From Amoebophrya sp. A120 (Eukaryota; Protista; Dinoflagellata), in the NCBI GenBank assembly GCA_905178155.1, contig CAJINV010000006.1:2644658-2708657 (forward strand): a stretch of 64,000 nt of DNA. The letters are read 5' to 3'. The first letter of the stretch is position 1; each line of letters opens with the position of its first letter. Under the pieces are notes generated by a model, which was not told the DNA's origin, did no database searches, and saw nothing but the letters and a program-made list of their open reading frames with translations. This document shows, piece after piece, positions 6,101 through 37,811 of this stretch. The position numbers were made by a program, and so were the translations under genes.

Positions 6101-7081
6101 TGCTAGCGGAAACGCGGCCACTATTCGAAGCCCTTCGGGCCGCGGTTTTAGCATGACAAAACGGGCCCGCACTTGCTACTGAAGCCCTTCCCTAGTAGCG
6201 GCCCACATTAGTGGACGCGCGCGCCTTCGCTTCCGGGGCTTCTTCCTAACTAGCTCGCCCCCGTTCGACCCCCCCGGCCGCCGGCCTTGGCCTCGGCCCG
6301 GTCCCCCGCTTTTGGGCTTCCTGCCCTGCCAGCCTGATGTCTAGAGAAGACCTCTGCCCAGATATATCCCCAGATATATCCCCAGATATATCCCCAGATA
6401 TATCCCCAGATGCGGGAAGGGCCGCCCTTTTCATTTTGCATGCCGAGCTTCATCGCCCCCCCCCTACCCCCCCAAACGGGGCCGGTCTTTGGGGGTAGCC
6501 AGAATAGACCTGCTAAAAACCGGCCGGACCACCGCCCGCGTGGAAGACCTGCAGGATGTTTGTTCCCCGCGATGCCTTTTTTTTTCTTCCGCGTGTTCTT
6601 TTAGAAGCTTCCCTTAAGGGCCCCCTTAAGGGAAGTTTCTAGATGCCCTTTTTTCTAGAATTCATTTTCTAAGGGCGCCCCTATAATCTATAAGGGCGAA
6701 AAATCCGAGTAAAAATTCTATAGTGTTATTTTATAAAATGCATTGCAAATTTCCTTAGCGTGACAGATAAAATTGGTAATGCTGTTTTAGCTAAGGAAGG
6801 CGATTTGTCATGCATGTCTGCAATTAGTACGAGCTCGATACTTTTGCACAGCATATCCTGGTCCGCTTCCCAACTTTGTCAAAATAAGACACCGCTTTCA
6901 ACCGAGGCTGCAGAATCAGCCCCGTGTGGTCCTCAAACTTGGCCTCGACGCGACCGTTGGGCGAGATGATGATCCGGGTGGGGGCAGCGGCGGTGGAGGG
7001 GGAGAAAGCCACGGAGCTTCCAGATGCTGATTGCGCACCTGCTCCGGAGGTCCCAGTGGGAGGCGGTATAATCGGCGCCAT
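151..7081 (-). CDS. C5orf34-like protein (DUF4524/DUF4520-like), multi-exon
   Basis: I removed TAT..ATA elements at 5925-6855, 5656-5882, 4773-5085, 4395-4679, 3721-4017, 3359-3630, 2460-2682, 2151-2376, 1490-2088 (nested), 1150-1455, 847-1063 and 476-695, plus 5 nt each. This joins MAPIIPP..PTRIIISPNGRVEAKFEDHTGLILQPRLKAVSYFDKVGKRTR|TLLNGNIENAVT|EIRQKLACCVKIANQYLPEP ... EMSVENVGRFACYEF..LIRAK|FLDGTRMEY..EFVITTVEK|GRMVRSF..FLEYVRACKVF|EYQV..stop at 151. N- and C-terminal motifs resemble C5orf34 from memory. The frame across about 2700-3200 is not resolved (candidate GT-AG intron 2965-3063). Confidence 0.7.
5656..5882. mobile_element. Introner family F5 representative (TIR TATCACGAGAAAAAAGTGTTACAGTTACACA)
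   Basis: Other copies at 847, 8329 and 9829; related copies at 40880 and 63436. Confidence 0.88.
5953..6733 (-). mobile_element. Non-autonomous Helitron-like insertion nested inside an introner
   Basis: It splits the 5925-6855 element, whose halves rejoin to the family consensus. On the minus strand it ends in CTAG (5953-5956), preceded by a perfect 11-bp GC hairpin (5964-5986). It is inserted between A and T with no target-site duplication. The 5' end lacks the canonical TC. Confidence 0.6.
6357..6411. repeat. Tandem 12-mer (cccagatatatc) x~4.5
   Basis: Directly visible, inside the Helitron-like insert. A nearby palindrome agaagcttcccttaagggcccccttaagggaagtttct lies at about 6603-6640. Confidence 0.9.
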
Positions 7082-7738: not shown

Positions 7739-10067
7739 TCAATGTTGATCCCAGCTGGCAAATTCTTGGACGAGCAATTGCAGCAGCTCCGGACAGGTTT
7801 GTTGCATGAAGTGCCCCTTGTTCTCAAACACGATGGCCTGGTAGAAGCCGTTCCTATTTTCCTTCTTCGGGTTTGGCGTAATTTCGTCCCCATGATCATT
7901 CCCGTGCTGATTGTTCCGCATGACAAGGTCCAGGCAGCTCGCAACCTCGTCGAACTCGCGCCGTGGTATGAAGGGATCGTCCGACCCGCAAATGGAGAAA
8001 ATTTTTCCCGCATGCATTGCAAATATGACTGGGTCTGGAAACTTGTCATGCTGAGTTGCGGACGACTGAAGCGCTTGCAATGGCAGCCAAGCATGACAAA
8101 ATTTTTTCGGACACGCCTGCTGATGCCTAGGACGCGTCACAAATTACGTTTTTGCATGACAACGGAAGCTGCTCTTTTGTTGCTCTTGCAACACAGATTT
8201 TCCAGGAATGCAAGACATGCATTACAAGTTCCACCTGTCGTGGTCCCGACCCAGATATATTTGCACTGGATATCCCGCGTTTCCCCTCATCCTCTCCCAC
8301 TGCCACGGCTTATCCGGGAGTCCGTTTATATCACGAGAAAAAAGTGTTACAGTTACACATTTGTTGGAGGCTCTGCATCACAAATTTTCTCTGTGTGGCA
8401 GGGAAAACTTGTAATGCGAATATCATAAGGGAAATAAAACAGGAAGGAAATGAGGCTCCCAAGTATTTCCTGCATGAGAAAGGTTATCTGTGTTGCCGGT
8501 CTTGCATAGACTATGTGTGTAACTGTAACACTTTTATTTTCCTGTGATACTTTGGCTGTTTGGGATAGTACCCGGACTCCAGCTCGTTGCTGTTGTTCAG
8601 ATGCGTTACACAGGGCGAGATCAGGTAGAATACGGGCTTGGTGCACAGGACTTCAAAACTAGTACCGGCCGCGTCGTTATAATTTGGGCACAGTTTCTAT
8701 CAACTGTACATAGGTCTGGGTCTGGCAATTTGTGATGCCAAAGCATGGATGAGTCTGGTGCTTTCAAAAAGTGCAGCCAAGCATGACAAGTTTAGTTGGC
8801 GCCGTCTGATGCGTAGCACGCATGACAAGCTGCTGCGTTTTTGCATCACAAAAGAGTCGCCCGTTTGATGGCTATGCAATACAGAGTTTTCAGAAATGCA
8901 GGACATGCAACACAAGTTCCACCTTTCCAGACCCAGACATATTTGCAATGGATAGATTCTCCCGCAGAAACGCCGGGTCCATCACCTCCGCCAGGCGCAT
9001 CAAGCACTGCGCGCCGGAACTGTGCCCCAGGAGAAGGAGCGAGATGTTCGCTTTCTTTGTGCTACGTGGAGGTCTAGCACCGTGTTCTTGACCGACTGGT
9101 GCACCGACAACTTCGGAAACGTCTTCCACCTCTAATTCGTTTGCCAAGTGGTCCTCGATCTCTTCGCGCAAGGATTTCACCACAAACGGAATCCACACGT
9201 ATCAAATGCAAAAATGTCTGGGTCTGGAAGACTGCGAGACTTGTCATGCTTGTCTGGGATGACCAAAAAGTTTGCGATGCGTGTCCAAGAAGAGACAGAC
9301 CCTTTTGCCTGTCGTGCAAAAACGCAGTTTGTCATGCGAAAAACGCAACACAAAGAAGCGCAGATATTTCGCATGCGTGGCTGTGCATTATAGAGCACTC
9401 CCCATCCCCAGCGCAGCATCACAAGTTTCCAGACCCAGACACTTTTGCAGCTGATAACACGCTCGCTCGCGCGACGTCTGGATCGGGCATCGGCTTGCAG
9501 ATCACGCTACTCAGGTTCGGCACGCAGGTCTGGAGCTGCTGCGCGAGCCACAGATACTATGAAAGTGCACAACCCCCCTCCCCCTCATTTGTGATGCAAA
9601 ATACCGAATCCACCACTTGTGCTGAAGCACTGTTTGCATGACAACTCTCGGAACCTGAAACAGTACTACAGTTCGTGTGTTGATTTGTCATGCAGAAGGC
9701 CCATTTCTGCCGTTGCTTGTGTTGCCGTTCATGCATTACAAATGAGGAGGAGGGGGAGTTGTGCATTGTCATAGATACCAGTTGGCGCCCACAAGCGTGT
9801 CCTCGTCGCACCCGTTGCCAGGCAGAATTATCGCAAGAAAAAAGTGTTAAAGATACACACTGTGTTGCAGGCCAAGCAAGACAGACCAGCTCTGTCATGT
9901 CGGATATGCATAGGAGCTTCGTTTCATAGGCGTTTTCCCTTAGGATTTCTGCATTGCAAGTCTTCTCTCTCATGCAGAGGAATTTGCGTTGCTGAATTGA
10001 CAACAAATGTGTAACTGTAGCACTTTTTTCGTGGGATAAGAATCATCGCGATGTTAATCCTTGGCAT
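7739..10067 (-). CDS. RBBP9: RBBP9/YdeN-like alpha/beta serine hydrolase, 7 exons
   Basis: Elements at 9829-10038, 9558-9773, 9200-9456, 8698-8954, 8329-8549 and 8011-8272 removed. Result: MPRINIAMIL|PGNGCDEDTLVGANWY|LWLAQQL..PMPDPDVARASV|WIPFV..LLGHSSGAQCLMRLAE..ELESGYYP..KPWQWERMRGNA|GKIFSICGSDDPFIP..KGHF. The PGNG, MPDP, GHSSG nucleophile, DDP and GHF motifs are in RBBP9 order. Confidence 0.9.
9558..9773. mobile_element. Introner family F6 representative (TIR TATGAAAGTGCACAACTCCCCCTCCCCCTCA)
   Basis: Other copies at 476, 2460, 26807 and 32109. Confidence 0.88.
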
Positions 10068-12173
10068 GGTCTTTGCAAAGCCGCCGGGCGGCGCTGCAAA
10101 AATCCTCCGTGGCGCAATGCGCAAAAGAAGTTCGTCCCGGGCAAGTAAGTAAGGAAGTATCTTTTTCCAAGCCGATAAAATTATATGCGGGGTTTTTCTA
10201 CTTCGACGAGCACAAGATAAGTACGTGCGCAAGTCTATTCCTTTTTCACTTTCTAGCACGGCGTTGCTTTGAGTAACGAACTGGAGAGGCGGCCCTTGTT
10301 GAAAACCACTTCTACCCGGTCGGGCGCTGAAAGTCGCAGCATTGCTGTGTAAAAGTGCTTCAGTACACGAGAAAACTGCGGTTGGAGTCCGGCAAAAAAA
10401 AAGCGCAAATAATGTTAAACCCTGATAGAACCAAACTCTTAGCAGTCGTGGCGCGCGCGGCGTGCAGCTAAGCCGTGGCCGTAACCTCGAGGAGCTGAGT
10501 TTGGGTCTCACGCGGCGGCGCCGCTGCTTTTGCGATTTTTGTCCTACCGCATCACCTAAAGCGCTGCACCGGGCGCGCAGCTTGGTTTGGGGAGGGAAGG
10601 TTCGTTCGGTTTTTCCGCGCAACCCGGACCGCTCTCCTGCGTTCGCAGCTTTTGCTGGTTCGGCGGCAATGCACCTTCATCCCTGCTGCGCGCTCGAGAA
10701 CTTCAAGTCGGGGCGCGCCCCGAGAGGGCCGGCCGCGGCGCACCGTCAGAGAAGGTCCGCAGACCAGAGCACGCTCGCGGCGAGCGACAATGTGAAGCCG
10801 GCGCAGCTTGCCGCTGCGGCGCCCGGCGTAAGCAAAGGCCCGCGCCGGGGCCCCGGCGCAAAATACCACCGGGCGGGGCTTTGGCAATTGCCCCGCGCCC
10901 TCTTGCGCCTGCTCCGCCCGAGCCGGCAGCCTTGGGCCCGCGCGGGGAAGGGTTACCCGCGCGCGCGGTAGCCCGCTTAAAACGCCGCCCGGCGGCGCTC
11001 TGAAAATGGCTCTGCGCCTTGTTTTCCTCGGCGGCCGGAAGGCCCGCGCCCGAAGCTAGCAGCCCAATTGGCAAAGGGCCAGGGAGCCCACCGAAGCAGC
11101 CGGTGCCCTTTCCGGCGGCCAACGCCCGGTCGAGTAGTTTAGCGCCGTCGCTGCACGGTTCGGCGCCCGTATCGCCTGCTGCGGTGGCCTTGGCCATGGC
11201 GCGCCGCGGCTGGTCTGGCCCTTGCCCGGGATCCGATGCAAAGCACCGCCGCGCGGCACCCTAGCGGCGACAGCGATGCCTCCACCTATGGACGGGGGCG
11301 GGGGCACTCCGCGCCGGCGTTTTTCTGGTTGGGGATAGAGGGCAGCACACGTTTTCCGCGCCCGCGTTTGCGGGCCGCAGTAGGCAGGCCTCGGAGCCGA
11401 GGCGGAAATAGATCTGCGGGCCACGTTATTCCGTCGGTTTTGCTGTTTCTTCCGATCCGCGGAACCACAGAGAAGACCAGCTGCAGCCTGATCCAGCTGC
11501 CCTCTTGATAAGTGACAAAATCCGCCGGAGTTGCCTTCTCCTCCCATGGTAAACATACCCGAAAAAGCCGGACAGAAACGGTGGCCAGAGGATGCCCTAA
11601 GCATGTGTATGCCCATTCTTCATATTGGCTAGGTTTCCACGCCTCTGGGTGACCCATGAGTGGGGGGCTCCCAAAAAAGTGAAAAACTAATCCAGTCCAT
11701 TTTTTCGGATTATGTTGATCAGCTGCCATCATGTGAAGACTGTCGGCAATATAAAGATAGATCATTGCGCTTTTCACAAATCATCTTCGTATACAAATGC
11801 AGAACATCATCTAAATCAGCAAAATTGTCAATTTTTCAAAAATTGAAAAATTCAACATTTTTTAGGATTACAAGTCTGGTGGTAAAATTTGCCTTTAAAG
11901 TCCCAGAGAGTCAATAGATAATATGTATTCACGTGTCTTGATATGCTATAACACTTTAAATCATTGGGCTGCGCTAAAATCCCACAAAAAATAAAAAATA
12001 TCAAAAAACGATCCAAGGATTTTTGTTTGAAATGTGTTGCATATTCCTGAAAAATGCATAATGGGAAGTGTTTGCGATACGCAGTCACTTACTATGTTTG
12101 TACTTATTCACTTACGGAAGCCACCTGCCATCAATATTGTGAGAAAGTAAGTCATTTTCAAAAAAATCAATTA

Positions 12174-12358
12174 GAGGGACGAGCCCGCCGCCTTTATTTC
12201 GGCAGGACCATGCCGGTGCATCTGAGTGTAGTCCAGTACGAGCGCTGAACGCGAGCGGTATTTGCGCGCCGCGCGCCTGTATGCATGCAAATAGATATAG
12301 CTCAAGGGTAGCAGGACCTCGAAGCACTCCAGCTCGCGTAGCTGGTGGCTTTTTCTTG
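12174..12358 (+). repeat. Split direct repeat A1
   Basis: 185 bp, matches 13168-13352 with 4 mismatches. Confidence 0.95.
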
Positions 12359-12986
12359 GTTTCACGGTCTCGCCGTCCGTGCCCACTGCCGGCGCTAATC
12401 TCCGGCGTCGCTCCATGGTAGCACAGCTGACGGAGGCTAGGTTGTGATTGAGGCTGGTCCACAAGTGTGGCAGCACAGTGTACAGGCAGGTAGCCAGGTA
12501 GAGAAGTGCGGTTTAGTGCGAAGTGTGCACAGGTGCGAATGCGTGTTGCAGCGTCCTAGGTGGATGTAGGCTGATACAGTGGCTGCAGAGCATATGGCGT
12601 CAGCGCTGCCCTCGGGGAGTCGGTAGTTTCTCGTCCAGGCGAGGATCACCTCTCCGGTGGTGCGCCCCCACTCGTGTGACGGGTCTGACGGTGGAACTTG
12701 CTTCGCTGTTAGCACCAGGCTGCGCGCGTGGCGCTGCTTATCGACTCGTCGAGAGGCAGTGCTGCGTGCCTGTTGTTGTCGAAAGCGGGCATCAGATATG
12801 CTTGCTAAGGCGCCGCAGCCAGTGTTGTGTGCAGCTCACGATGAGCGAGTAGTAGGATGTCAAAACGCGGCACCAGCATGCGTCGCTGTAGGTCTTCGAG
12901 ACGCTCGCGTCGTCGAGCGGGGTGGGGGAGTTCCAGATGCGCCTCAGTCGGCGCCCTCTCCTCGTGGTCGAGCGTAGGTGGCGAAA

Positions 12987-13158
12987 GGCCCTCCCCCGTG
13001 GTGTTTGGATTCGACGTGCGAAACGCCTTCCGGTCTGCGTTGCGAAGCTGGTATCCCGTCGGCGGGCTCGGCGATCGTTTCTCGCGTGGCCAGTAGTCCA
13101 CATTCGTGTCATCACATCAATGTAAATGTACACCAAGCTAGACATGCAAGAAATAAAG
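12987..13158 (+). repeat. Split direct repeat B1
   Basis: 172 bp, matches 20007-20178 with 1 mismatch. Confidence 0.95.
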
Positions 13159-13167
13159 GAGAGCGGC

Positions 13168-13352
13168 GAGGGACGAGCCCGCCGCCTTTATTTCGGCAGG
13201 ACCATGCCGGTGCATCTGAGTGTAGTCCAGTACGAGCGCTGAACGCGAGCGGTATTTGCGCGTCGCGCGCCTGTATACATACAAATAGATATAGCTCAAG
13301 GGTAGCAGGACCTCGAAGAACTCCAGCTCGCGTAGCTGGTGGCTTTTTCTTG
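13168..13352 (+). repeat. Split direct repeat A2
   Basis: Copy of 12174-12358; follows B1 after 9 nt. Confidence 0.95.
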
Positions 13353-13368
13353 CCCACCCACCCGCGCC

Positions 13369-14920
13369 ATGTTGTCAGAAAGTGAAGATGATTTCGATGC
13401 CTCGATGGAGGCAGAGTTGGAAGCGCAGGCAGCAGACAACCTGCGGTCGGTCGATAGCATGAAAAAAGCCTTCGGAGAAAGGGTGGCAGCGAAAGCCATA
13501 CGAGACTGCGCAGCTAGCGGCACCAGGTTGCCAGCGCAGCTACTTGCGAGTGCAGGAGAGCTTCCTGCCAGTACGTTCACGCACGAGCAGTTGCAAGAAC
13601 GAGTACCGACGCCCACCAGTAAGGGAGTGATGATTTTGAACCAGGCACAGGCAGTGCAGATGAGCAACACGCTTTCCCAGTTACGGTTCAGCATACAGTA
13701 CAAAAACGGGGAGCCAGTGCTCGACAGCATCAGGTGTAGACGGAAAGATGATCCGTCTCAGCGCAGCAACGTGCTCGACGTCCCCAAGGACGTGTTTGTC
13801 AAGCAGATGGTGACGGCGCAAGCCAGTATCGACGCAGTGTTCAACGCCCGTACGGAGGCGGAGGGGCGGACAGCGCAGAGCAAGCTGGCTCTGGCGTTGG
13901 ATATCGCCAAGGACCCCATGTTACTACAGTCGGCGATGTCGGAGTTGGACCAGATGTCCTCCACAAAAAAAGCCGATGACAATCGTGCTTCACGGATTAG
14001 ACGGCATGAAAAAGTGGCGCAGAATCTCCCGCACCACCTGTGGTCGTATCCATCAGTGCGGGCGTTTGTGGGGACGAGTATGGCCGCCGGGTATGCAAGC
14101 ATACAACCGGCTGTGAAGGATGTTTTGGCGGACGAGCGCTGCAGGTTATCCGGTACAGAAAAAGAAAATGTGATGAAGGAGCTCTCTACACTGGTTCGTA
14201 GAGGCTTTCTAGGCAGGAAAAAGCAGAAGTCTCCCATGACGATAGTGCATATCTACCAAATGTGGGTGTGCAGTAAATTGTTGCATCAAGAGGCGGTGGC
14301 TCTGCTCTTGGCTTTTTATGCAGCATTGAGGAAAAGTGAAGCCTTTTTGCTGGACGTGAAGAACACAGGCGACACAGGTCTCATCTCTTTGCGATATGAT
14401 GTTAGTGGAGATTTGTTACTAAACTTTCAGGAAGCCTCTACCAAAGTTAACAAGTACGCCATGGTAAGGGTCGCTTGCATTTGTGAGCAGTTGAAGCGCA
14501 TCAAGTACCCGCCAGAGTTCTGTGTTTGCAAGTTCAAAAGTGTGTTGCCACATCTGTGCAGAGAAGACTTGGACATTGCTAAGATAATGAAGCGCACGTT
14601 TCCGCATGAAAAAGATGCCGCAAGCCATAGTTGGAGGATAGGAAGTGCTACGCATCTGTACCTGATGAAGATCGATCCAGTTCGTGTCATCGTGCATTGC
14701 CCTATGATGTGCAGCTCTTGCGATGCCAGCTTGAGGCTTTTGTGTGGAGATTGTGATGGAAAAATTGAAAAAATAAGAGTGCAGAAATGTGAAGCTAGCA
14801 GCGCAAGTGTGAAGCGTGATAGTGTGCTGGGCTAACATGCAAATGCTGATGTATTACATAAGATCTATCCCGTATGTGAGTCGGAGCATGTTTGTCCCTC
14901 TGAACTTCTGCGGCATTTAA
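13369..14920 (+). CDS. Tyrosine recombinase, join(13369..14701,14826..14920)
   Basis: Motifs LLLAFYAALRKSEA (catalytic R), STKVNK (K) and SHSWRIGSAT (HxxR). After removing 14702-14825 the C-terminus reads IVHCRWANMQMLMYYIR (W and catalytic Y), with stop at 14918-14920. Confidence 0.85.
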
Positions 14921-15241
14921 GGTTACGCAAAATGATGAAGTGCATGAAGATGTTGGCTTTTTGTTTAAGAGCATGTGAAGAGCATAGAAAAATAGGAATG
15001 CACAGCTTGCGTCAAGAAAGTCTCCACATCTGTCACCCGCGTGTTCAGCAAAATGCACAGTAAAGGTTCTGCCGGGGATCAAAGTGCCACGATTTCAAGT
15101 CACAGCGCGTCACTGGTTTTCGTTGCGTTACAGTTGAGCTTCAATTAAAAAAAAAAAAAACACACCCGTAGGAAAAGTCCGTTTACACCTCTGAGGATAT
15201 CAAAACTCTGTTGAAGTAGCTTTTAGCACTTCGTAAAAAAA

Positions 15242-16552
15242 ATGGCCAATGTCAACGTTAACCAACAGCAGCAGGTGGCTGCGGTTGCCCAGGGTGTGAT
15301 AGTTTTCTTTGTTGTTTGAGTTCATGCAGCCATGATGCATGCGTGTAGTATGTTTCTTTCAAAATGAGTAAGAGCTGATGAGAAGTCCATGTGACATGCA
15401 TGTTGCGTTTTCCGATATGGAAAAAATCACATCACAGCGGGTGCTGCCAACAGGGAGTTGACCGACTTCATTGTCGGACAAGACAATCAGATTGAGCAGA
15501 GTTTCCAGAACTTGTCGCTCGACGTCCCCGAGTTACGGCCCACCCAGGCCGACTTCACCAAGTGTGCCAAGGTCATCAACTCCCGTGCGTTGTGGGAAAG
15601 TGGTATAGATCATTAGTTGTGCATGCATAATTGGTATGCAAAGTTATTTGTGCAAGTGTAAAAACATGTGGCAATCATGGAAATGCAATTGGGCAAATCG
15701 TTCATTATCAGGTAAAACGATGAAGGAGTTCAAGAAGCTGCTGACTCAGGAGGATGGTACCGCCAAGGTCAACAAGGACCTCCCTTTCTCGGTCAACGCG
15801 TTGCTGGCGGCCATGGCGGCCAAGGTCCATAGGGACCGCGACCCCTTGATTACGGTCGACAGGCGTAGCCAGATCATCAGTCAGTTCATGTTGGCCAAGA
15901 CCACGATCTCCGAGGAGACCGCCATCAGGGCGCTGGGGACCATCGTCTACAAGACGGAGCAGTGGACCCCCGACAGTTCCCAGCCCGGCACTACCTTCGG
16001 AGGCCGTATGAGAACCTTTTTTGCCGAAAATCGTTTCAACAAGGTCTGGGGTGAAGAATTGCAGCGTTTGAAGAACCTGCGTGAGGCGTCGGCGGAGGCT
16101 ACGGCCGAAGCCCGCTCTTTGATCGCAGAGGAACGTGCCGCTATGCGGGAAGAAATGTCCAACCTCAGGGACTCGTATGGGCCCTATCAGAGTGGTGGAA
16201 AAAACAACAAAGGTAGGTATCAATGTGGTGTCATGAGACAGTCTTTGCAGTTGTTTTTCATGCATATGTTCAGACATGAAGTTGACACGGTAGTCATGCA
16301 TGTGTAGCGATTCCTTCAGGTAAGGGTAAAAACGGCAAAAAAGGCAAGAAGGGCAACGCCAAGTGGTGCCACGACTTTCTCAAGAACAAGGGTTCGTGCA
16401 AGTTCGGTAGCGAGTGCAGGTTTCGCCACGCGGCGGCGGGCGACATGAGCCAGAACGAGTGGAAGAACTTGCAGTCCGCGTTTAGCGACAAGCTCAAGGA
16501 CATTGAGTACGAGTCGTGGTGCAAGCCGGTGGCTGAGGCTGCCGCGGTGTGA
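15242..16552 (+). CDS. Gag-like protein with CCCH zinc finger, 4 exons
   Basis: GT-AG introns at 15294-15437, 15603-15711 and 16213-16319 give an open frame: MANVNVNQQQQ..ALWES|GKTMKEF..GGKNNK|GKGKNGKKGKKGNAKWCHDFLKNKGSCKFGSECRFRH (C-x9-C-x5-C-x3-H). Confidence 0.8.
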
Positions 16553-17352
16553 ATGTGATTCTTGCCTTTTATGAGTTTTTCAAATGTACAGCGCACAGCA
16601 GCTTCCGCTAATGTCGTTTCAAAAAATGAAAATAAAAATTAGAAAGTAATTAACTCTCCATGAGAGTACTTATACATGTTTTTTTCGGGCTGCTGTGCAC
16701 TGATTTGTTTATCAAAAATTCAATTTTCTGATTTTTTATCCAGTGACGTGACCTGGCAACAGTATAGTTTATGATGATTGACGTTGATTTGTCAATACTG
16801 GAAAATAAATGACAGAGCAAGTTGTTATCGTCATGCACAAACTTACTGTTGGAAATGCACAGCAACGGAAGATACATATTTGTTTTAAAAAATGTGAGCG
16901 CAAGTGCGAACTTGTAGTTGCAGCTAGGAGCTGCAGATATGTGTGTGTCCCCAGCAAGAAAGATTGCTGCCCATGTGGCCAAAGTGCAACGCAGTCGTCG
17001 TGAACGTCCTCAAGAGCGTCGGTTGCTGTGTACAAAGTAGCAGTCAAGCTTGGACGTCGGTTGTAACTGGAAGTCGTGTAGCTGGCCAGAGTCAAGGAAG
17101 CACTGTCGCAAATCGTTCAAAAGTCGCGCAAACGCAGCATTTGCAAGTCGTACGCATTGGGGGCAAAGAAGTAGTGTGCAAAGAATTGAAGTTACTCATA
17201 CAAAGTAGCAGCTAGTCATCGTTTATTTTCATCAAAGTGTAAGACTAAAGTAGATCATCACATGCCACTTGTTTCACATGCAAAGACTGAGTGCGTTGGT
17301 ACACAGAGTAGAGCTGAAGTGAAGTCGCCGAGTCTTTCTACGTCTGATTTGA

Positions 17353-19707
17353 TTGAAATCGATACTCACGTCACTTGAGGAAAAAGAAAACAGTATGCCG
17401 CTGCCCACGGCACTCGATGTTCATAAGGTTATGAAAAGGGTGGAGTTCGACATGCTGCGCGAACACCCCTTTGATGTGGCCCAACAACTGCCCGACCCGG
17501 CGCAGATGTCGGAAGACAAAATAAAGCGTGCACATGCGGAGATGAAGAGGTGGCACGAAGAAACGGCGTCGAGATCAGCAGACCTTTTCTCGCAGATCGA
17601 CAGCAGGATCAACAAGCCCAAGACTTGTCAGAAGCTTGGCTTGTGGGAGCTCTTGGGGCAGAGATACCACGGCAGCGATCCCTGTGCGTGGCGCGTGTGG
17701 CTTCATGGCCTCTCCATGATTGGAGAGTGCCAGGTGGATCCGACATGGAGTCCGAGAGCAAGGAAGGACCGCATGTGCGACGACCCCAGCGCTTTTAAAC
17801 CCAGTAAAATCGTCGCCAAAGTGCTAGAAGGAGCGCATGCAAAACCGGCGTGGTCGGAAGACGATATTCGTCTCGTCTGGGAGAAGTCCGTCAAAGAGAC
17901 GGCGGTGGTGCCCGAGCTGGGATACGCGCTCTTAGAAGGCCCACCTGAAGTTCCAGATGATATCCGCGCCAACAAGTCTGCGCGAGAAGCCATTTATTAT
18001 GGCATGCGGAGACTTCCACGGCACCAGGCGAAAAAAGTCCGGCTGATAGACCCGGCGTGCAGTGCGAGCCAGTGTTCGCCACTGCCGTGTCGAGTGCCAA
18101 TACCGTCGGCACTCGACGTTTTGGCGAACGCGGCAGTGGCGCGCGACCCCTCCTGCGCTGGTAAAAAGATTGCCCGACACAATCGCAAAGTACTGCAGAG
18201 GAGCAGGAAGCAGGAAAAGCAGTATGAGAAAGAATTTCTCAGATACGTGTCCGGACAGCAGGAGAAGCTCAGTGAGGAGTTGTTAAAACCAGGAGCAAAG
18301 CAGCCGGCGTTTGCGGATAAGGCGGCGTTCGCCAGCGTGGACGAGGAAATGTCGAACAGGAAATTCCGGCGTGCCATGAATGTTGTAAAAAACGAGCTCG
18401 ACGTCGTTTTGCTCGACATTGCGAAGTGTTACAGCAACATGATGGTGAAGCCGGAACATCGTTGTTACAACACCATCCTCGTCTTCCACCCCGAGCTGCG
18501 GAAATATTTTTACTTCGTGGGAGTGTCTGCCATCTTTGGCAGCAGACACTCCGTCACGGGCTGGCGCAGGCCGGGGAAACTGCTGCGGAGTGTGCTCAGG
18601 AAGCACTACGGGATCAACTCGGAGGATTATGTGGATGATTTCCCGAATTTTGTGTTGCGAGGATTAGGCGAGTTGGTCCGCGATGTGCTCCTGGAACTGC
18701 TGCAGATGTTGGGATTGCCGGCGATGACGGACAAAATCAACGTGGGCGTGTTTTTAGAAATATTGGGATTGCTTTTTGATGTCAGAGGAGATCATCCTAC
18801 TGCGCAGCTGACCGAGCAAAAGAAGATGCAAATTGTGCAGGTTTGTGATGTTGCGATAAACGCGTTGATTTTGGACATGACCACCGCCGACGCGTTGCTA
18901 GGCCGATTGACCTTCTCCTTGGCTGCGGTGGCAGATAGGTCTTTAAACCCGATCATGAAGCCGTTAAGGCTGCATCTGGCACGGGAAGAAATCGCGGCGT
19001 GTGAAGATGTGAAGAACGCGTTGTACGCCATCAGGCATGTGATGAGCTTGCCGCTCAAGCGCAGTGTGCAGTTTGAAGATGCGACTTCGAGCAGCCTGCT
19101 GCTCTACACCGACGCACAGTGGAGCGATCGGAAGGGAGTCTTGGCGGCGGTCCTGGTGAAAGATGGGCGGTTCAGGTGTGTCCGACAGCAGTGTACAGCA
19201 GCACAACTACACTCCTCCTACCGCCTGTACCCGATCAATGTGTTGGAAACAGCTGTTGCCTCCCTGGCATTGCGGTACTTTTTCAAGGAGCTGCAGGGGA
19301 GGAGGTTTGATCACGCCATAGATAATACTTGTGCTCAGCAAAATTTGTTAGCACAAGGCAAAAGTAGCAAGGAGCAAAAGTGGGTGTTCACACGGCTTAC
19401 AGCGGAATTTTGGTCGATTGCGGCGGAAGGTGATATGAAGCCGTGGAACACCCGCGTCCCTACGCACTTCAATCTTGCTGATTATCCTACCAGGGACGAA
19501 AAAGTGTCGATTTTGTTGAAGCTGTTTCCGAATTTATTTGATGAAATTGTTGATGGCTTTGGGATGGATGATTATTATAAAAAACTGTTAGTAGTTGATG
19601 TGTCCCCAGGCGTGTCACACTTGGCCGATGCCTTGGCAGCCTGGCAAGTAATGCAAGAAGAAGGTCGTACTGGTGATCGCTCTTCAGATGAAGAAGTGGA
19701 TTTCTAG
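17353..19707 (+). CDS. Reverse transcriptase / RNase H (DIRS-type pol)
   Basis: RT motifs LLDIAKCY, AIFGSRHS and YVDD; RNase H motifs LYTDA, INVLE, IDNT and NLADYPTR. The true start is uncertain (first ATG 17395; possible upstream exons from about 16809). Confidence 0.92.
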   Translation: MKSILTSLEEKENSMPLPTALDVHKVMKRVEFDMLREHPFDVAQQLPDPAQMSEDKIKRAHAEMKRWHEETASRSADLFSQIDSRINKPKTCQKLGLWELLGQRYHGSDPCAWRVWLHGLSMIGECQVDPTWSPRARKDRMCDDPSAFKPSKIVAKVLEGAHAKPAWSEDDIRLVWEKSVKETAVVPELGYALLEGPPEVPDDIRANKSAREAIYYGMRRLPRHQAKKVRLIDPACSASQCSPLPCRVPIPSALDVLANAAVARDPSCAGKKIARHNRKVLQRSRKQEKQYEKEFLRYVSGQQEKLSEELLKPGAKQPAFADKAAFASVDEEMSNRKFRRAMNVVKNELDVVLLDIAKCYSNMMVKPEHRCYNTILVFHPELRKYFYFVGVSAIFGSRHSVTGWRRPGKLLRSVLRKHYGINSEDYVDDFPNFVLRGLGELVRDVLLELLQMLGLPAMTDKINVGVFLEILGLLFDVRGDHPTAQLTEQKKMQIVQVCDVAINALILDMTTADALLGRLTFSLAAVADRSLNPIMKPLRLHLAREEIAACEDVKNALYAIRHVMSLPLKRSVQFEDATSSSLLLYTDAQWSDRKGVLAAVLVKDGRFRCVRQQCTAAQLHSSYRLYPINVLETAVASLALRYFFKELQGRRFDHAIDNTCAQQNLLAQGKSSKEQKWVFTRLTAEFWSIAAEGDMKPWNTRVPTHFNLADYPTRDEKVSILLKLFPNLFDEIVDGFGMDDYYKKLLVVDVSPGVSHLADALAAWQVMQEEGRTGDRSSDEEVDF

Positions 19708-20006
19708 ACATTGGGTCGCGACATGTACATTAGTATTTTTGTGTAGAGTCTATTAAAAAAAAATGTGTGCAGTTACAAGTGCTGACAGCACGATGTGCAG
19801 ACAGGTGTGCAGTACGTAGCAGCATCAGCAGCTGCAGCTCGAGTGATCTCTGTTCGTGTGGTTCGGTGTGGTGATACGGAGGTGGACTATAGAGTGCCGA
19901 TAGTCAGGTTTTCTGGTTCTATCGCGGCGCTCACTCAGATCTCGTTCCCGCAGAAGGGATAGCTTCGTTAGCTTTCAGGCGTTTGTGCAGAGAGGGTGTG
20001 CAGAGC

Positions 20007-20178
20007 GGCCCTCCCCCGTGGTGTTTGGATTCGACGTGCGAAACGCCTTCCGGTCTGCGTTGCGAAGCTGGTATCCCGTCGGCGGGCTCGACGATCGTTT
20101 CTCGCGTGGCCAGTAGTCCACATTCGTGTCATCACATCAATGTAAATGTACACCAAGCTAGACATGCAAGAAATAAAG
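20007..20178 (+). repeat. Split direct repeat B2 (right terminus)
   Basis: Copy of 12987-13158. Confidence 0.95.
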
Positions 20179-29387: not shown

Positions 29388-32300
29388 ATGGACGGCTTCG
29401 CGCCGCAGCAGAACGGCCAGGGCGGGGGAGATGGTATTTTTTAGAACGTTTTTCAAATTAGCATTACAAATTTCCACCTTAGCATGAGAAACAAAATTTG
29501 TAATGCGGACTGACCTTACGAAAAAGATTTGTAATGCAAAAAACACGACACACGGTTCTTGCAAAAATAGACACATTTTTTTCACCGTCTACGCAGGTAA
29601 CGCGAATCCACCAGTTGCCACGGTATCCTTTGTAAAAGCGTCCCCACCCCATAATCAAGATGTGAAATCTGCAAGACAAATCAGCGAGCTTTGATTGTTG
29701 CGCATGACAGATTTTGGCTCGCAGCGTAATCTTCTTTAGCTAGTGCAGCAGCATCACAGATCTAGCACATCATGCCGATTCGAGCATCACAAGCCTCAAA
29801 CTACCACTACGAAATGCTTTGCGTGGGTCTTCGCATGAGAAACATGTTGAGCATGCAGATATGCATTACAACACTAGGGTGGGGATGTTTTCACACAGGA
29901 TATATGGGCGGCATGGACGTGAACCAGATGCGAACCAAAGGCGACCTGCTCGTCCGCAAGGGCGAGGGGTTGCGCGCGGAAAATCCGGAAAAGGGGCAAA
30001 TGCTGGTGCACAAGGGCACCTTGCTCCTGCAGGCCGCCGCGAAAGTATCGTGAGGAAAAATTCCCCCTCGCCATACTTACAATGGAAATTTGTGATGCTG
30101 ATTTGTGACCACAAATCAGCTTTGTCTTGCATAAGAGGCAAATGGGAGCCGTGTGGCGCATTCCACAGCCAACCTGTCATGCGCGTTTGCCTACTGCAAA
30201 GCTGTCTGTCATGCCTGAGCGCCAGCCTTTTGCATACCTAACCAGGCTTAGGAAATGCCTGCAAGCGCTCGCTGCAATACAGCGCTGATTTGTGTACACA
30301 AATCCAGCAACAGAAACTTCCGTTTCAATATGGGGAGGGGGCTTTCTTCACTTCGATAGAAGGGCGGGGTTCCTTCTTCCATGGGAACTACAGGAGGTGC
30401 AGCAGCAAACCAACAGCAGCCTAGTCCGAATGAGAGTACGAGCAAGGGAGGTGCAGGCCTGAATAACATGATGATGGGAGGACCTCCACAACAGCAAAAC
30501 CCGAATCAAAAAGGCGGACTTGCGGCTCTCGGTGGTCCTCCAGGGGGGCACAGTAACTTTGGGAACATCAAAGGCGGCCAGCAAACCGGTGCCGGGGGAG
30601 CTTCGGGGCCCGGCGGCTACGGCCCCGCCATGGGAGGAGCAGGGAACAATCCGCAAAACGCAGCGATGATGATGCACGGAAACAATAAGTCTGGGCCCTA
30701 CGGGGCCCCCCCCGGCGGAGGCGTTGGTGGTGCTATGGGAGGGCCAGGAATGATGCAGAAGGGCGGCTCCAGCCAGAGCACGCCCTACCACGGACCCCAG
30801 CAGGGCGGAAAGAATTACAGCATGGACTTTGTTCATCACAAGGGTGGAGGACCAACGCCGGGCGGTCAGAATTACCATGCGGCCCACGCGCATCATCAGC
30901 ACCACTACAACAATAACCCACAGGTGGGACCTAGCGGGGGCCACCAGCCGGGGCAAATAACCCACCACGCCGGGATATCAAATGCAAATATGTCGGGGTC
31001 TGGAAGGATGCAAGCTTTGGCATGCTTGTCTGGCATGACTGAAGGCTTTTGTGATGCGTGTGGAAGAAGAGACCCTGTTGGCTGTCACGCAAAAACGCAG
31101 CGTGTCATGTAGAAAGCGCAACACTAAGCCGCGAGAATATTTCTCATCATGCTTGGCCGTGCATTACAGAGCATTCTTTGTAGTTCGCGAGCCTGCATTA
31201 CAAGTTTCCAGACCCAGACATTTTTGTATTTCATACGGGAAAAACTATTACAACAACCAACTCGCGCTAAAGGGCGGTTCCTTTTCGGGGCATGATATTG
31301 TGAGGAAAAATGTCCCCACCCCATAGTGAAGATGGGAAATCTGCAACACAAACCCGGAAGTTTTGGGAGTCACGCATGACAAGTTGCCCTCTGTATTGTA
31401 GTGCAGTTTCGCAAGGACAGCCGCATCACAAAGCCAGCTCCTCATCCTATTTGCAGCATCACAAATTCCAAAACACGACTGGAAATGGCTCGCATGGGCG
31501 ACATGCGCATTACAAGTCTTCCTGTCTTTGCAAATCTGCATTACAACTCTGGGGTGGAGACGTTTTTACTCAGGATACATGAGGGCTCCCACTCGCAGTC
31601 GGAACACCACCACGGAAGTGGCCAGTTTTTTCACCATCAAGGGAGTATGAACTGCAAAAGTATCGTACTCGTATAAATGCATGACAAATTCCCTCAGCAT
31701 GAGAAATAAAATTTGTCATGCGGATTTACCTTCAGAAAAAAATTTGTAATGCATAAATGCAATTACTACGAGTACGATACTTTTGCACAGGATAGGGAGA
31801 CGGAAAGTGGAAAAGGTACTGTATGAGATTTTTTTTTTGTACTAACTCATTTGTTCTTTCTCAACATGCAGGCGTGTTTATTTCATAGTTCTTGTTCACC
31901 TAGGTTGGACTTGTTTCTTAGCATGATAACAACACCAGCCGCGACTCCGTATTGTAGCAACCGTGCCTGGCACCATTTAAGTGAAATTCAAATGTACATC
32001 AGCTGAACCTCCGCGGTTCGTTTCCCGAGCCGGACCTCTGGACGCTGTTGCTCGCCAATCTAGATCCGGAGATGCCCACGGTTTTCCTCCTAAATCAAGT
32101 GCTGAAGATATGAGAGTGCACAACCCCTCCGCCTCCCCCTCACTTGTAATGCGAAATACCAAATCCACGCTTTGCCACTTGACACTGTTCTTTGCATGAC
32201 AAGTTCTGGCAGCCCAGATATTAGCACTACTTTCCTTTGCAGATCTGTCGTGCAAGTCCTGTATACTAGCTGATGCTTGTATTGCTGTTTCTCGCGCCTA

Positions 32301-35300
32301 TCGAATGAGGGGCAGGGGGAGTTGTGCGCTGTCATAGAAGAACTGCGGCACCGTAAAGGGCTTTCACCGGGAGGACGACTTCTGCTTTGTGCAGTATGGC
32401 GCGGCGGTGGACGCCTACATTTGCTACCTGGTTCTGAATATGAACTGCAAAAGTATCGTACTCGTATGAATGCATTACAAATTTTCTCAGCGTGAGAAAT
32501 AAAATTTGCAATGCTGATTTACCTCAAGACAAAGAGTTGTAATGCAAGCCTTGCATTTATACGAGTGCGATACTTTTGCAGTTCATACTGAACGACAAGG
32601 AGCTCCCCTTCATGACGGACGACAGGGCGTCCGATTTGGACGACGACCTGTCCAGTGAGGACGAGGACGAACAACCAGTTATCACACTGAAAAATCCCCC
32701 CTCCTCTCACTCAATGTTGGAATTTGTGTAGCATGATTTGTGATCACAAATCACGTTGTCATGCTAGAAGGCAAAAGATGCGGACTGTAGGGCCGGGTGG
32801 CGCGGAAATAAAGCCTTGCATCTTGAGCATGGCACGAACCAACTGCATTGCCCAGAACAGCATGACAAAGTGTCTAAAGGTAACCCGCGGGTGTGTCTCT
32901 TCAGCTTCCAGCAATACAGGTAGATTTGTCTACACAAATTGCGCATCAGAAATCTTCTTTTGATATGGGGAGGGGAAATTTTTCCTTCCAATACCAGTCG
33001 GCGGAGCTACAACTGCGTTTTCTACTTCAGCACAACCCACGACCACGGGAGGTAGACAGCCCGTGCCCGCCCTGAAGTCCGCCACCGCGAAGCCGAAAGC
33101 CAAGCCATTGGCGCGAAATAGAAAGAAGAAAACTACCGTGGAGAGTAGAACGAGCAACAAAGACGGTGGACCAGGAGCGGTTGACGCGCCGGTGCAGACG
33201 TGCTACCAACTGAAGGTGATTTATGAAGAGCAGACCGAAAAGAAGGTCACAGCCTGGAAGAAATCCGCCCGAGTAGAGCTGTCCAAAAGGCTTTTAACCG
33301 CGAACAACACGAAATTGACGGAGGAGGAGCTGGAATTCGAGCTAGAAAAGTCCACCGCCGATATCCTGAGTAAAAATGTCCCCACACCAGAGTTGTAATG
33401 CCAATGTGCATATTGAAAACATTTCTCATGCAAAGCCCCATGAGAAGCATTTTCGAGTCGTGTTTTGGAATTTGTCATGCTCCAATCAGCATGATATAGG
33501 AGATCTGTGATGCTGCTGAATTACCTAAAACAGCACTGCACTACGACGACAAACTTGTCATGCGAAACAGCCACAGATGGTTGATTTGTGTAGCAGAATT
33601 CGCATCTTGACTACGGGGTGTTTTATGTACTGGAAAAGACCAAAAGTAAAGCACGGAGAAGTTTCGGGGTGGGGACATTTTTGCTCAGGATAGCCGACAA
33701 GCAGGCGCTTGTAGACTCCGCGCTGAATCAATACACGGAAAAGGTGAATCAACTGAAACTTTCCACCGCTTTCCTCGAGAACCAGCACGCGCTGGCGCAC
33801 GGCGGAGGTGGCGGCGGGAGGAAAATGCTTTTGAATAAGGAGGAGGCTTTGGAAAAAGCATATCAAATGTAAAAATGTTTGGGTCTGGAACAAAACAACT
33901 TGTCGTACTAAATCTGAATCATGTAAAAATCTGCGTTGCGTGATTACCAAAAGCCGTCCACTTTTGAGCTAATCGAGAGGCAGTTTCTCATCCAGGATCA
34001 TAGGCATGGTAGAACTCTCACAGAATCTGTCATGCTATGTCCTTCATACCAGACCGCATGGGTCATGGGAAACCTGCATGACAAGTCTGGCATTCTTCCA
34101 GACCCATCCATTTTTGCAGTTGATAAAGCAAAACGGAAAAACGCGAAGGAAGCCGCGACTCTGCTCCGCAAAAGAAGAGCCGCTCTGATCGACGTATAAT
34201 GATTTTTGTGCTGCACATATGCAATACAAATTTCCTGTACATGTACAACATGCATCACAAATTTCACCAATTTGAAGGGTAAAACTTGTCATGCTAAACT
34301 AGGATCGAAGTCAAGTTTTGTCATGCAGAGGCCGCATTTGTACGTGTACGGGAAATTTCCTGTGGATAGCACATCTGTTTTTATGTGCAACAATTATTTA
34401 GTCGTTCTTGTATTTACCTAGACAGGTTCTATCTTGTGCGTCCCTGCTGTGGTTGTCGTGCCCCGCACACCACGGGAGCTGCGGGCACCGCAGGGACGAG
34501 ACTTATGATGAAGTCGATGTTCTCCATCTTTGCCAAAGGTCGAAGGAGTAGCCAGGGTCGTGATAAAGTATACAAAAAGAAAACAAACCCCACAGGAAAT
34601 CCGGGTTCTGGAAAAGCGGCGGCGCGTGCAGGAAGTTTTGACCGATTGCAAGGACGTGGAGCAAGAGTTGCTGGACCTGAAGCGGCCGAAGCCACCGTAT
34701 CTGGATATGACCTGCTCAAACGTTACAATCTCAGACGTTACAATCGAATCTGGGATTTGTCTTGCATAATGAGCATGACATTCCACTTTCTGCAACACAA
34801 ATTTCGGCAGATTGTAATGCGGTTTGGGACTCCGGAACTTGGCTAGATCGTGCACTTCTTGCGTCTCAGATTTCCAAAATCTATTGCAACGGTTGAGATT
34901 GTAACGCTTGAGCAGGTCATACGGGAAGTCGTCGCGGAGCCCACCCGCTGGAAGACGTTGTTGCGGTTCTGCGCGCACGAAATCCCGGACGACATCCTGA
35001 TGACCATTCGCTTCGACAAGTGGGAACTGAAAGCCAGCTGCGTGCTGTCCGCGAAGGCCCGGCCCTGGCTTATTGTGAGGAAAAATCCCCCCTCCCCATA
35101 TCGACAACGAAATTTGTGTTGCTGTATTTGAGTATACAAATCGACTTGCATTGCTAGAACGCCAAGCCACGCTGTTGCTGCCTCGTTTGTAGGCAGTTTG
35201 CCATGCTGTTTCCCGTTTCCAGTTGCTTCCTGTCGTGCTGAAGACGCTAGGCCTTCCTACGCCAGCCAGCACTACAGTGCGCATCTCTTCCCTTCTAGCA

Positions 35301-36687
35301 TGACAAAAGGATTTGTGGTCACAAATCACGCTACACAAATCTCCGGTTTAGTATGGGGAGGGGGGATTTTTCCTTTTGATATGGCTGCAGGAGCGGCTGT
35401 GCGAGGAGATTCTGGGCGGGAGGCAGAACGTATGGATTGCAAAAATGTCTGGGTCTGGAAAGATGCAACTTGTCATGCGCATTTTAGAACAATGAAAAAA
35501 TCTGTCATGCACGGGGAGCAAAAGTAGCCATCTTTCTGGTCTCCGAAAGAAGGGATTTGTCATGCGGATTAGGCATTGAGAAAACTGCTCAAAACCTGTT
35601 TTGCTGGGGCTTGCATGACAGACCTTCTGTGTGACGCAGACTCTGCATCACAAACATTTGCAATCTTCCAGACCCAGACATTTTTACACTTGATAGAACG
35701 AGCTGTGCGACTATTTGATGCAGCAGATTCTGGAAAATCAGGTCCAGCTGAGGTACCCGGACGGCACGTTGAAGCCAAAATGGACGTCGGTGGACAGTGA
35801 AAACAACGACACGATAATAGACGACGACGATGACGAGTACAATTTGAAACTAAACTCCACCACCAACGGCTACGAGTTTGTGGAACTGCTTCGGAAGACC
35901 TGCATCCCGCACCTGCAACAAGCGACGTTTGTGACCGTCCGGTTGTGGCGCATGCTGGTCTTCGAGTTTAGGAGGCGGGGGCTGGACCACTGCTTATCAA
36001 AAGGAAAAATCTACTTCCCTCTCCCCAGTAGATCTGAAACGAAATTTATTGTGATGCTGGTTTAGTATCTATTTGGGTACACAAAAAGTTTACTTCATGC
36101 AGATCCTAAGCGGCCCACGTAGCGATCATTATCTATCATGTAGTCCTCTCGGCGTAGATGTGTCGCATGGCAGACGCAACCGGCCCATCTGGAAGCCTAA
36201 ACTATTAAACAGCCTGAGAAATTATAATTATCGTGTCGTGCACCATCCGCCGGCGGACACCACTGGCGTTGCTTTCCTGCAAGTAGTCATGACAGAGCTG
36301 ATTTATTATTGTGTACACAAATGAGCAAGTAGAGGACGAACACAGACTTGTTCTCTTTTGAATACGGGGACGGGGGGAAATTCTTGCCCACAATACTGCT
36401 TCATGGACTTTGACACCCAGGAGTTAAACCGGATTTCCGAACTCTACTTTGAGTCGGTCGACCAGCGGGCGAATGACTATTTTGCCAAGTTGCCCCGCGC
36501 GCGCGCCGCGGAGAACCATGGAGCCACAGAGGAGGAACTGGAGGCCGCGCGCACGGAGCGGTGGGGCGAGTGGCTACAGTGGTGCGAGGAAAGGTTCGGA
36601 GACCAAAAGGCGAAAGTGGCCCAGGAAGAGTTTGAGCACCGGCTGGAGACCGGGAATCTCAATTTGGGGTACCGCCACTGGGAATAA
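29388..36687 (+). CDS. RBM25: RBM25/Snu71-like splicing factor (Gly/Gln-rich N-terminus, RRM, coiled coil, PWI)
   Basis: Elements at 29624-29902, 30046-30358, 30976-31235, 31296-31577, 31646-31794, 32109-32336, 32439-32587, 32680-32993, 33362-33692, 33861-34125, 34706-34921, 35071-35381, 35431-35695 and 35995-36395, plus GT-AG introns 29434-29596, 31816-32002 and 34194-34595. RRM: TLLLANLDPE..VLK|NCGTVKGFHREDDFCFVQY..LVLN. PWI: ARPWL|QERLCEEILGGRQN|ELCDYLMQQI..VRLWRMLVFE. Confidence 0.75.
31646..31794. mobile_element. Introner family F4 representative (TIR TATGAACTGCAAAAGTATCGTACTCGTA; about 150 bp)
   Basis: Other copies at 5925, 23100, 24573, 26510, 27372, 32439 and 39208. Confidence 0.88.
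34706..34921. mobile_element. Introner family F7 representative (TIR TATGACCTGCTCAAACGTTACAATCTC)
   Basis: Other copies at 24878 and 55536. Confidence 0.85.
35071..35381. mobile_element. Introner family F3 representative (TIR TATTGTGAGGAAAAATCCCCCCTCCCCATAT)
   Basis: Other copies at 1493, 25210, 30046, 32680, 35995, 44752, 48331, 52993 and 57618. Confidence 0.88.
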
Positions 36688-37811
36688 GTATAAGTAGTAT
36701 AACAAATGAACGAGCAGTTGTACCTGGTTCTTGAGACGTGGTGCGAAATAAACTTTTGCCCTCTGGGTAAGTACTTACTTATACAACATCTCTGCCGAAG
36801 TAGAAGAAAACGACATTGAATTTGAGTGTTTGAACAAAGAGCCCAAGTAGAAGAAGTTCTTGTCATGAAGAAACACATATTTGAATCAACAGTGACGACG
36901 AGACCTAGTACAACTACATTTTGCCCAGGCCGTGGCCCGCGCTCTCAACAAGAACTTCTTGCGGTGATAAAGAACTTTGTCACAATTATACCTGTTCGTC
37001 TCGATGTTCACGTGTAGTGCATGGAGTTCTTGTTCAATATGGTCAGCCAGGAACAACTCAATAGTGGTGTCATCCTTAGACAGAAGAACAAGTCGTTTCC
37101 TTTCACGCTTTCAAAATCCTGAAGTAGGACTTTCTCGTCGCGCAAAGCATTTTTTTTCGTTCGTTCTTTGTCCTTCTCCTCTGCGCTGGCCAGCGACGCT
37201 GCGGTTCTCGAAAAGCGCAGTTAGTAGTTACTACCAGATCATTAACGTCCACCCTCGTCCAGCTCGTGGCGGTAGAAATAGTAAATTGAATAATCTACAC
37301 GTTCGAGTGCATCATGATATCTTGACCAACACATCGTCCATTTTCGTTCTTCCGTTCTGTTGGATCTTTATAAATTTCACGACCGCAGGTAATCTAATAT
37401 GGATTTTATTAGTCCACGTATCGTGTCTGATAGTACAACAACGGCAGTCCTCGTCCCTGCAGTCGTAAGTATGCGTTTCTGTACTGCTGCTCCTCGTCCG
37501 AATAATTCTCGTGCATCGTATTATTGACTATAGTACTGAGTCGTGGTAGCAGCTTGTTTTGCCCCACGAAGAGGTTGACCATTAACTTCCGAAAACAAGT
37601 TGACCACATAAAAATTCGCTCCTTCGATACTGAAGACTTTGAAGAATCTTCCATCATCTTGGCAGTGCTCCGTTACCACCCGACTTCGAAGGAGATAAAC
37701 TTCACTCGCCTTTCGATTTATGTGTTTATTTTTTCACCGGTCCTCGCATTTTTACTTTGGCGAGCGCGGGATAATAATTCCTGTCTACCCAACGAACCTT
37801 AACAAGAAAAA

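Follow-up and report, generated by a model that had tools for sequence, protein, structure and literature searches.

A 124-nt TAT...ATA hairpin as a likely non-canonical intron just ahead of the catalytic tyrosine of a retrotransposon recombinase in Amoebophrya sp. A120

About 65% of the 66,565 RNA-supported introns of Amoebophrya sp. A120 are non-canonical, with borders that were called variable or unknown (Farhat 2021, PMC7789003); the genome paper could not place these borders because a flanking repeat hides the cut. The introners of this strain are recognized by an inverted repeat that starts with TAT and pairs both ends, and by direct repeats of 3–5 nt at the borders. Retroelements of the Ngaro/PAT type, on the other side of the comparison, contain genes for gag, reverse transcriptase/RNase H (RT/RH) and tyrosine recombinase (YR), and their split direct repeats follow the order A1-ORFs-B1A2B2. 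In the locus described here, a 124-nt hairpin located just before the catalytic tyrosine codon of a retrotransposon YR gene is likely, judging from sequence comparisons, to be removed as a non-canonical intron.

The window, i.e. the whole 64-kb stretch of A120 DNA that was analysed, contains a retrotransposon at 12174–20178 with three plus-strand genes in the order YR, gag, RT/RH (Table 1). Genes and split direct repeats are those of the Ngaro/PAT type, but the repeats are arranged as A, 620 nt, B, A, genes, B. This layout mirrors that of Ngaro/PAT and could be a circular permutation of it. Integration of a circular intermediate may have used the alternative B-A junction; otherwise, the standard layout would be that of the minus strand, with all three genes in antisense orientation to it, and the persistence of introns would be accounted for. 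The B-A junction contains a linker of 9 nt (13159–13167) that is missing from both termini. Outside the element, a 12-nt tandem unit of about 4–5 copies (6355–6410) lies inside a GC-rich intron-free stretch, and a second GC-rich stretch is located at about 10450–11500, just left of the retroelement.

Table 1. Coordinates, within the 64-kb window, of the retrotransposon features and of the host introns that bear on the splice register
Feature	Position	Strand	Basis
Split direct repeat A, copy 1; 4/185 bases differ from copy 2	12174–12358	+	
Split direct repeat B, copy 1	12978–13158	+	
Split direct repeat A, copy 2; B-A junction with 9-nt linker	13168–13352	+	
Tyrosine recombinase, exon 1	13369–14701	+	Box I R-x-x-E, H-x-x-R, H-C; ESM Atlas PF00589 clusters, Cre-like profile, 28 homologues
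Upstream 5-nt repeat position, TGCCC; bases 1–4 exonic, base 5 = intron +1	14698–14702	+	Sequence, register
Predicted non-canonical hairpin intron, 124 nt (N+TAT...ATA+NNNN; begins CT, ends GT)	14702–14825	+	Phase 1, inside Arg codon of H-C-R-W
TAT...ATA hairpin unit, 119 nt; inner arms 14715–14732 and 14792–14809	14703–14821	+	Predicted fold, end-duplex test
Downstream 5-nt repeat position, GTGTG; bases 1–4 intronic, base 5 exonic	14822–14826	+	Sequence
Tyrosine recombinase, exon 2	14826–14920	+	R-W; catalytic Tyr codon 14855–14857 (W+9); stop 14918–14920; Cre W315/Y324 spacing
gag-like gene, CCCH zinc finger; predicted GT-AG introns 15294–15437, 15603–15711, 16213–16319	15242–16552	+	Open spliced frame
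Reverse transcriptase/RNase H ORF, 770 aa, uninterrupted	17395–19707	+	ESM Atlas RVT_1 clusters at 0.95
Split direct repeat B, copy 2; 2/173 bases differ over aligned core; element 3' end	19998–20178	+	
Two host introns, 8325–8550 and 8694–8955; jointly allow only the 4+1 split	8325–8955	-	Annotated protein
Host intron, 1/5 repeat bases matching, removed in transcript-based model	44466–44673 (44467–44669)	+	Annotated protein
Host intron fixing the register alone (AGTGT/AGCCA repeats); the annotated protein fits no split but 4+1, as predicted beforehand	48330–48705 (48331–48701)	+	Annotated protein

The unspliced YR frame starts with the ATG at 13369 and comprises 488 aa up to a stop at 14833–14835. 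Its coordinates and frame confirm what had been claimed in an earlier note on this DNA, namely that homology ends after H-C (IVHC); neither Trp nor Tyr is present at the catalytic positions. Deletion of 124 nt opens a downstream exon of 31 codons with Trp and, nine residues further, Tyr, resulting in a product of 475 aa. Only after this deletion do the catalytic R, H-x-x-R, H/W and Y occur at conserved spacing, the Arg-to-Trp (23) and Trp-to-Tyr (9) distances being those of Cre, without gaps. Frameshifting or readthrough instead of splicing was rejected because the homologues lack the 41 extra codons.

Assignment of the gene product to the YR family is based on its nearest ESM Atlas clusters, which are eukaryotic PF00589 integrases (0.97 and 0.96; family in 58% and 52% of the members), and on a profile of eight Cre-like sequences. 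The latter aligned without gaps to box I and, after splicing, to H-x-x-R, Trp and Tyr, but supports the identity weakly, with 9.4–10.6 bits as compared to 7.3 bits for the best of 500 shuffled sequences. Searches of Pfam, NCBIfam, PHROGs and PDB sequences and tblastn against phages gave no match for YR or for the RT/RH ORF, a word-based protein search with YR returned nothing, and a single-sequence AlphaFold model of YR (pLDDT 41.5) was too poor for a fold search. No match to YR occurs among the annotated A120 proteins of 244–777 aa, and the collection contains neither the YR nor the RT frame in exact form; repeat masking may be behind these missing models.

The position of the cuts was deduced from the residues preceding the catalytic Trp. 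Shifting the 124-nt deletion by its start position yields VCW (14698), LCW (14699), WCW (14700), CCW (14701), CRW (14702) and CPW (14703 and 14704). A full HMMER scan returned 28 relatives. The 17 that reach the site all show H-x-R-W (HCRW in five, HLRW in five, HARW in three, HMRW in two, HFRW and HQRW in one each), so the residue before Trp, to which the earlier note had drawn attention, is Arg throughout; the remaining 11 stop short of the site or continue into gag and are outside the motif count. The 17 homologues were picked by a pattern that contains the motif, and a listing of every H-x-x-R site revealed none that reaches the site with another residue. Sequences with H-C-R-W include homologues from Amoebophrya AT5.2 and another A120 YR, and the Cys two residues before Trp, a position occupied by Gly in Cre, is likewise present in close homologues. 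A family related to this element also occurs in A120 (CAD7966023). At the sequence level, only deletion of 14702–14825 was shown to give the motif common to all site-reaching homologues.

A profile built from the 17 homologues scored 92.9 bits for this deletion, 87.2 bits for the next register, 64.6–81.0 bits for six other deletion lengths, and 55.8 bits for the unspliced frame. Exon 2 alone reached 19.7 bits, as compared to 8.6 bits for the best of 1000 shuffles, and its stop is at the same distance from Trp as in several close relatives. Six candidates with canonical (GT/GC-AG) borders were listed, and the four that were scored stayed between 64.6 and 85.4 bits, none of them giving the conserved protein. 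The note's claim that 14702–14825 alone yields R-W thus held for the neighbouring registers, but it had overlooked 14699–14822, a GC...AG segment which would give H-L-C-W. This deletion is of equal length, with canonical-type ends, and is the only canonical candidate with correct Arg-to-Trp spacing; moreover, gag of the same element uses GT-AG-type introns, and the Cre-like profile does not separate the candidate registers. On the homologue profile, however, it scored 85.4 bits, 7.5 bits less than the preferred register, Cys before Trp occurs in none of the 17 homologues, its offset fits only 4 of 12 host introns (see below), and GC-AG introns account for about 1% of A120 introns, making a GC-AG spliceosomal intron at this site very improbable.

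Six AT5.2 gene models (P0009, P0011, P0016–P0019) consist of a truncated YR fused to gag and skip the stretch with the catalytic Trp and Tyr. They probably are erroneous predictions that combine neighbouring genes of one element family, although the fusions may also derive from alternative splicing. The gag gene of the A120 element resembles the C-terminal part of these models (E down to 8e-17); its zf-CCCH matches fall below the Pfam cut-off. Fusion of a related YR to a related gag in the AT5.2 models suggests that the YR-gag order is shared. Its first intron (window 15294–15440) permits two in-frame readings from one donor, GT-AG at 15294–15437 or G+TGT...ACA+4 nt at 15294–15440, and may be an intermediate between two intron types.

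The segment predicted to be removed from the YR transcript shows the inverted repeat of A120 introners, starting with TAT (14703–14705), ending with ATA (14819–14821) and pairing both ends. As described in the earlier note, the ends of this imperfect hairpin pair and a direct repeat is lacking, but the stem quoted there (14715–14732/14792–14809) sits 12 nt inside the ends; the predicted fold runs on via an internal loop to TAT/ATA. The flanks TGCCC and GTGTG are identical at 0 of 5 positions, the minimum in 29 annotated host introns being 1 of 5. Folding of the whole segment gave z = -2.55 (4 of 200 shuffles as good) and that of the complement strand z = -1.48, and the predicted fold is more stable on the coding strand (-32.0 kcal/mol) than on the complement (-20.9 kcal/mol). 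With end-to-end duplexes of 30 or 36 nt, none of 1000 shuffles was as good, as compared to 7 of 1000 with 20 nt; of 1124 coding windows of equal length from the element, 9 were as strong. With -27.0 kcal/mol, the end duplex is inside the range of the host elements (-53.9 to -7.6 kcal/mol), all 29 of which, at 184–526 nt, are longer than the YR segment. Within the window the segment resembles no introner beyond chance, which says little because A120 has 1954 introner families (Farhat 2021, PMC7789003). A search with its DNA pattern gave 0 exact matches in metagenome contigs and none in viral contigs; the sole metagenome locus was rejected as an unrelated bacterial response regulator.

A second test of the register made use of the host genes in the window, which is rich in elements of 150–530 nt that start with TAT, end with ATA, have paired ends and are flanked by 5-nt direct repeats. 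Two window exons are 100% identical to annotated A120 proteins (P0001; P0002). Where the two copies of a repeat differ, the protein residue shows which base survived; since the A120 annotation was built from BLAT-aligned transcripts, these residues likely reflect RNA. The two proteins cover 29 TAT-type introns, 16 with perfect and 13 with imperfect repeats, of which 12 are informative (intron 52993–53320 is imperfect but silent). For nine introns, two in P0001 and seven in P0002, retention of four upstream repeat bases and one downstream base (4+1 split) had been predicted before the proteins were seen; all nine matched, and three introns added later also fit, one of the 12 (46229–46723) having been located with the help of the protein. 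For 0, 1, 2, 3, 4 and 5 upstream repeat bases kept, the number of fitting introns is 1, 4, 6, 7, 12 and 9, respectively. At the protein level, one fixed offset, 1 nt before TAT and 4 nt after ATA, fits all 12 informative introns, with a chance probability of 1.8e-4 if registers were uniform; the test comprises two genes and protein residues rather than reads, with element ends chosen by the analyst. Stop codons alone, without the proteins, gave no decisive test for imperfect host repeats. Both the formula N+TAT...ATA+NNNN and the dispensability of the direct repeat, as proposed in the note, are supported by the host introns and by the 17 homologues; the host intron 44467–44669 is removed in the transcript-based model with only 1 of 5 repeat bases matching.

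Several further features of the host introns were observed. A strongly decayed intron at 46228–46727, with TAC...ATT ends, a GT donor and a terminal GG, is removed in P0002 with the same offset. In the introns that differ in the fifth repeat base (44467, 44752, 46229, 48331, 8329), the intron-side +1 base is G in 4 of 5, which suggests drift toward a GT donor with age; in the YR segment it is C. T seemed to be avoided at repeat position 4 (1 of 52), a restriction that the YR intron would break, but this failed in the annotated set, where 5 of 29 introns end with T. The gene with introns 8325–8550 and 8694–8955 presumably encodes an alpha/beta-hydrolase-like protein. The 1722-aa product of a gene at 44400–56660, which carries 23 TAT-type introns, contains Cys-rich repeats and PF22633 domains, probably a transmembrane helix, and a tail of Gly/Trp-rich repeats; it has a paralogue in A120. 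Another intron-rich gene is located at 29600–36700; the C-terminal part of its product may resemble the PWI domain of the splicing factor RBM25. The introner 1493–1818 apparently was inserted into the 5' end of introner 1821–2088; its 5-nt duplication includes the TAT of the latter, so that removal of the first would rebuild the second.

On the evidence of both tests, we consider it probable that the 124-nt hairpin is spliced at 14702–14825 by the host pathway for non-canonical introns, which would cut one base before TAT and four after ATA, restoring H-C-R-W and joining the catalytic tyrosine to the rest of the protein. The stem would bring the ends together, and the paired ends would serve as a ruler by which both cuts are placed at constant distances, leaving the bases at the cuts and the 5-nt repeat free to drift. 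Under this rule the 29 annotated host introns start with GT (12), TT (8), CT (5) or AT (4) and have 14 different final dinucleotides; only the U at +2 is fixed at the intron borders.

Two kinds of catalyst can be considered. A relaxed spliceosome that lacks U1 and takes N-U-A-U for a degenerate G-U-A-U donor is slightly favoured, because the register places the invariant U at intron +2, where a canonical donor has the U of GU. Of the spliceosomal components, most proteins as well as U2, U4, U5 and U6 are present in A120, in contrast to U1, which was not detected (Farhat 2021, PMC7789003). The nine top non-canonical motifs of A120 in Table S4 of the same paper all begin with N-T, which may reflect the choice made by the aligner. 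Among 52 plus-strand host elements the 5' TAT is invariant and the 3' ATA varies in four, three of them with ATG, which keeps a U.G pair; two TAC starts occur among more degenerate elements. In 60 introns, 31 of them with assumed strand, G.U was preferred over A.C (42 vs 21, p = 0.011); this bias is weak, the annotated 29 showing 24 vs 12 (p = 0.065), and a strand bias was not seen in the energies of the end duplexes (14 vs 13, p = 0.24).

Introns of tRNAs and archaeal bulge-helix-bulge introns are removed by a structure-guided endonuclease plus a ligase. The same type of cutter could act here with the intron and register unchanged, and the absence of U1 among the detected components, the occurrence of all four bases at intron +1 and at the last position, and the diversity of the final dinucleotides would be in line with it; moreover, euglenid hairpin introns are described in passages of PMC11282704 as leaving as circles, not lariats. 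However, the U at +2 and the A at +3 recall a canonical donor and, on the coding strand, vary less than the 3' bases with which they pair, +1 is most often G (12 of 29), and most spliceosomal components are present, so a nuclease and ligase appear less likely than the relaxed spliceosome. A more far-reaching proposal, namely that the tens of thousands of TAT...ATA introns of A120 are cut by a structural ruler without any base requirement, and that the YR family keeps one of them as a switch between template RNA and integrase mRNA, is conceivable but doubtful.

Regarding its origin, the segment may go back to an introner whose 5-bp target duplication later decayed, a reading that we moderately prefer. 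That an older intron or another insert converged on the hairpin rule of the host is an unlikely but serious competitor, given that the segment is short, has no target duplication and matches no introner family of the window, and that the first gag intron, too, allows a hairpin reading (TGT...ACA). What argues against convergence is that metagenome relatives, known from gene calls on short contigs, carry the H-x-R-W motif in apparently uninterrupted genes, which points to a lineage-specific gain. The intron probably is older than this copy and was carried through reverse transcription: its flanking repeats have decayed to 0 of 5 with the stem kept, whereas the terminal repeats of the copy are still 97–99% identical. 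Unspliced RNA (or an opposite-strand template) would then have been reverse transcribed, and spliced RNA would make the integrase. The same comparison bears on the possibility of a disabling insertion in a dead copy that is never removed; such a post-integration insert should be younger than the terminal repeats. In line with a dead copy, no transcript-based model of YR was found among the annotated proteins of 244–777 aa and no exact match in metagenome contigs, but conservation of exon 2 extends up to its stop codon and the remaining reading frames are open as well, so a dead copy is improbable.

Since the catalytic tyrosine is encoded by exon 2 and Tyr324 is described as strictly required in Cre (PMC2943603, in part), the element would need host splicing to produce an active integrase, as the note had proposed; expression of the gag frame is predicted to require, in addition, removal of its three GT-AG-type introns. 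Reliance on a host-specific pathway would restrict activity of the element in other hosts. For A120 itself, a fixed offset amounts to a rule that is open to genome-wide tests with available RNA-seq data and would correct gene models, and it frames the question of mechanism as N-U-A-U reading by a U1-less spliceosome versus a nuclease and ligase. The retrotransposon provides a natural experiment without any repeat, in which the hairpin likely is sufficient. It also adds a retroelement that apparently keeps introns through reverse transcription and relies on host-specific splicing for a catalytic residue. Spliceosomal introns have been reported in some DIRS elements, so that intron retention in this order may not be new; passages of the literature on DIRS elements did not confirm such introns.

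The 4+1 register is not stated in the literature found. It is absent from the passages retrieved of PMC12130899, PMC9860276, PMC12005148, PMC11453091, PMC13465315, PMC3783388, PMC5718144 and bioRxiv 2020.10.14.339549, and Figures S19–S23 of the Farhat supplement, known by their legends, may bear on it. The closest described systems are the A120 introners (Farhat 2021, PMC7789003), which share with the YR segment the strain, the TAT-starting inverted-repeat ends, the end-joining hairpin and, as predicted for the segment, the non-GT-AG borders. In contrast to these, the YR segment has no direct repeat and no family match in the window, and is part of an autonomous-looking retroelement.

As to the element, Ngaro, PAT, VIPER and TATE (order DIRS) are described in parts of PMC8547959 and PMC6681497 with gag, RT/RH and YR, A and B repeats and an internal B-A junction, but their layout is A-ORFs-BAB, as compared to A-spacer-BA-ORFs-B here, and the A120 element differs in its order of ORFs and its four predicted introns. 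Penelope-like elements also retain introns, which passages of PMC8557442 call highly unusual for a retroelement; however, they belong to a different subclass, and the introns described there are ordinary, often situated in the 5' UTR, and do not split an integrase active site. Cre of phage P1 shares the R/E, H-x-x-R, Trp and Tyr spacing with the spliced YR; the similarity is remote, about 10 bits on the eight-sequence profile, and Cre, according to parts of PMC2943603, has Gly-Gly before Trp where YR has Cys-Arg.

The introns of euglenids and diplonemids, a lineage unrelated to Amoebophrya, resemble the YR segment in end-to-end pairing and in the non-canonical junctions predicted for it, and junction repeats are described for them in passages of PMC11282704 and PMC12621601. 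In the euglenid introns covered by the former source, the paired triplets (CAG/CTG) are at +4 to +6 and -8 to -6, and the junctions are pyrimidine|purine; in the YR segment, TAT/ATA is at +2 to +4 and -7 to -5, and the junction bases are free at both cuts. The YR segment is therefore best described as an analogue that would work like the euglenid nonconventional introns, not as a member of this group.
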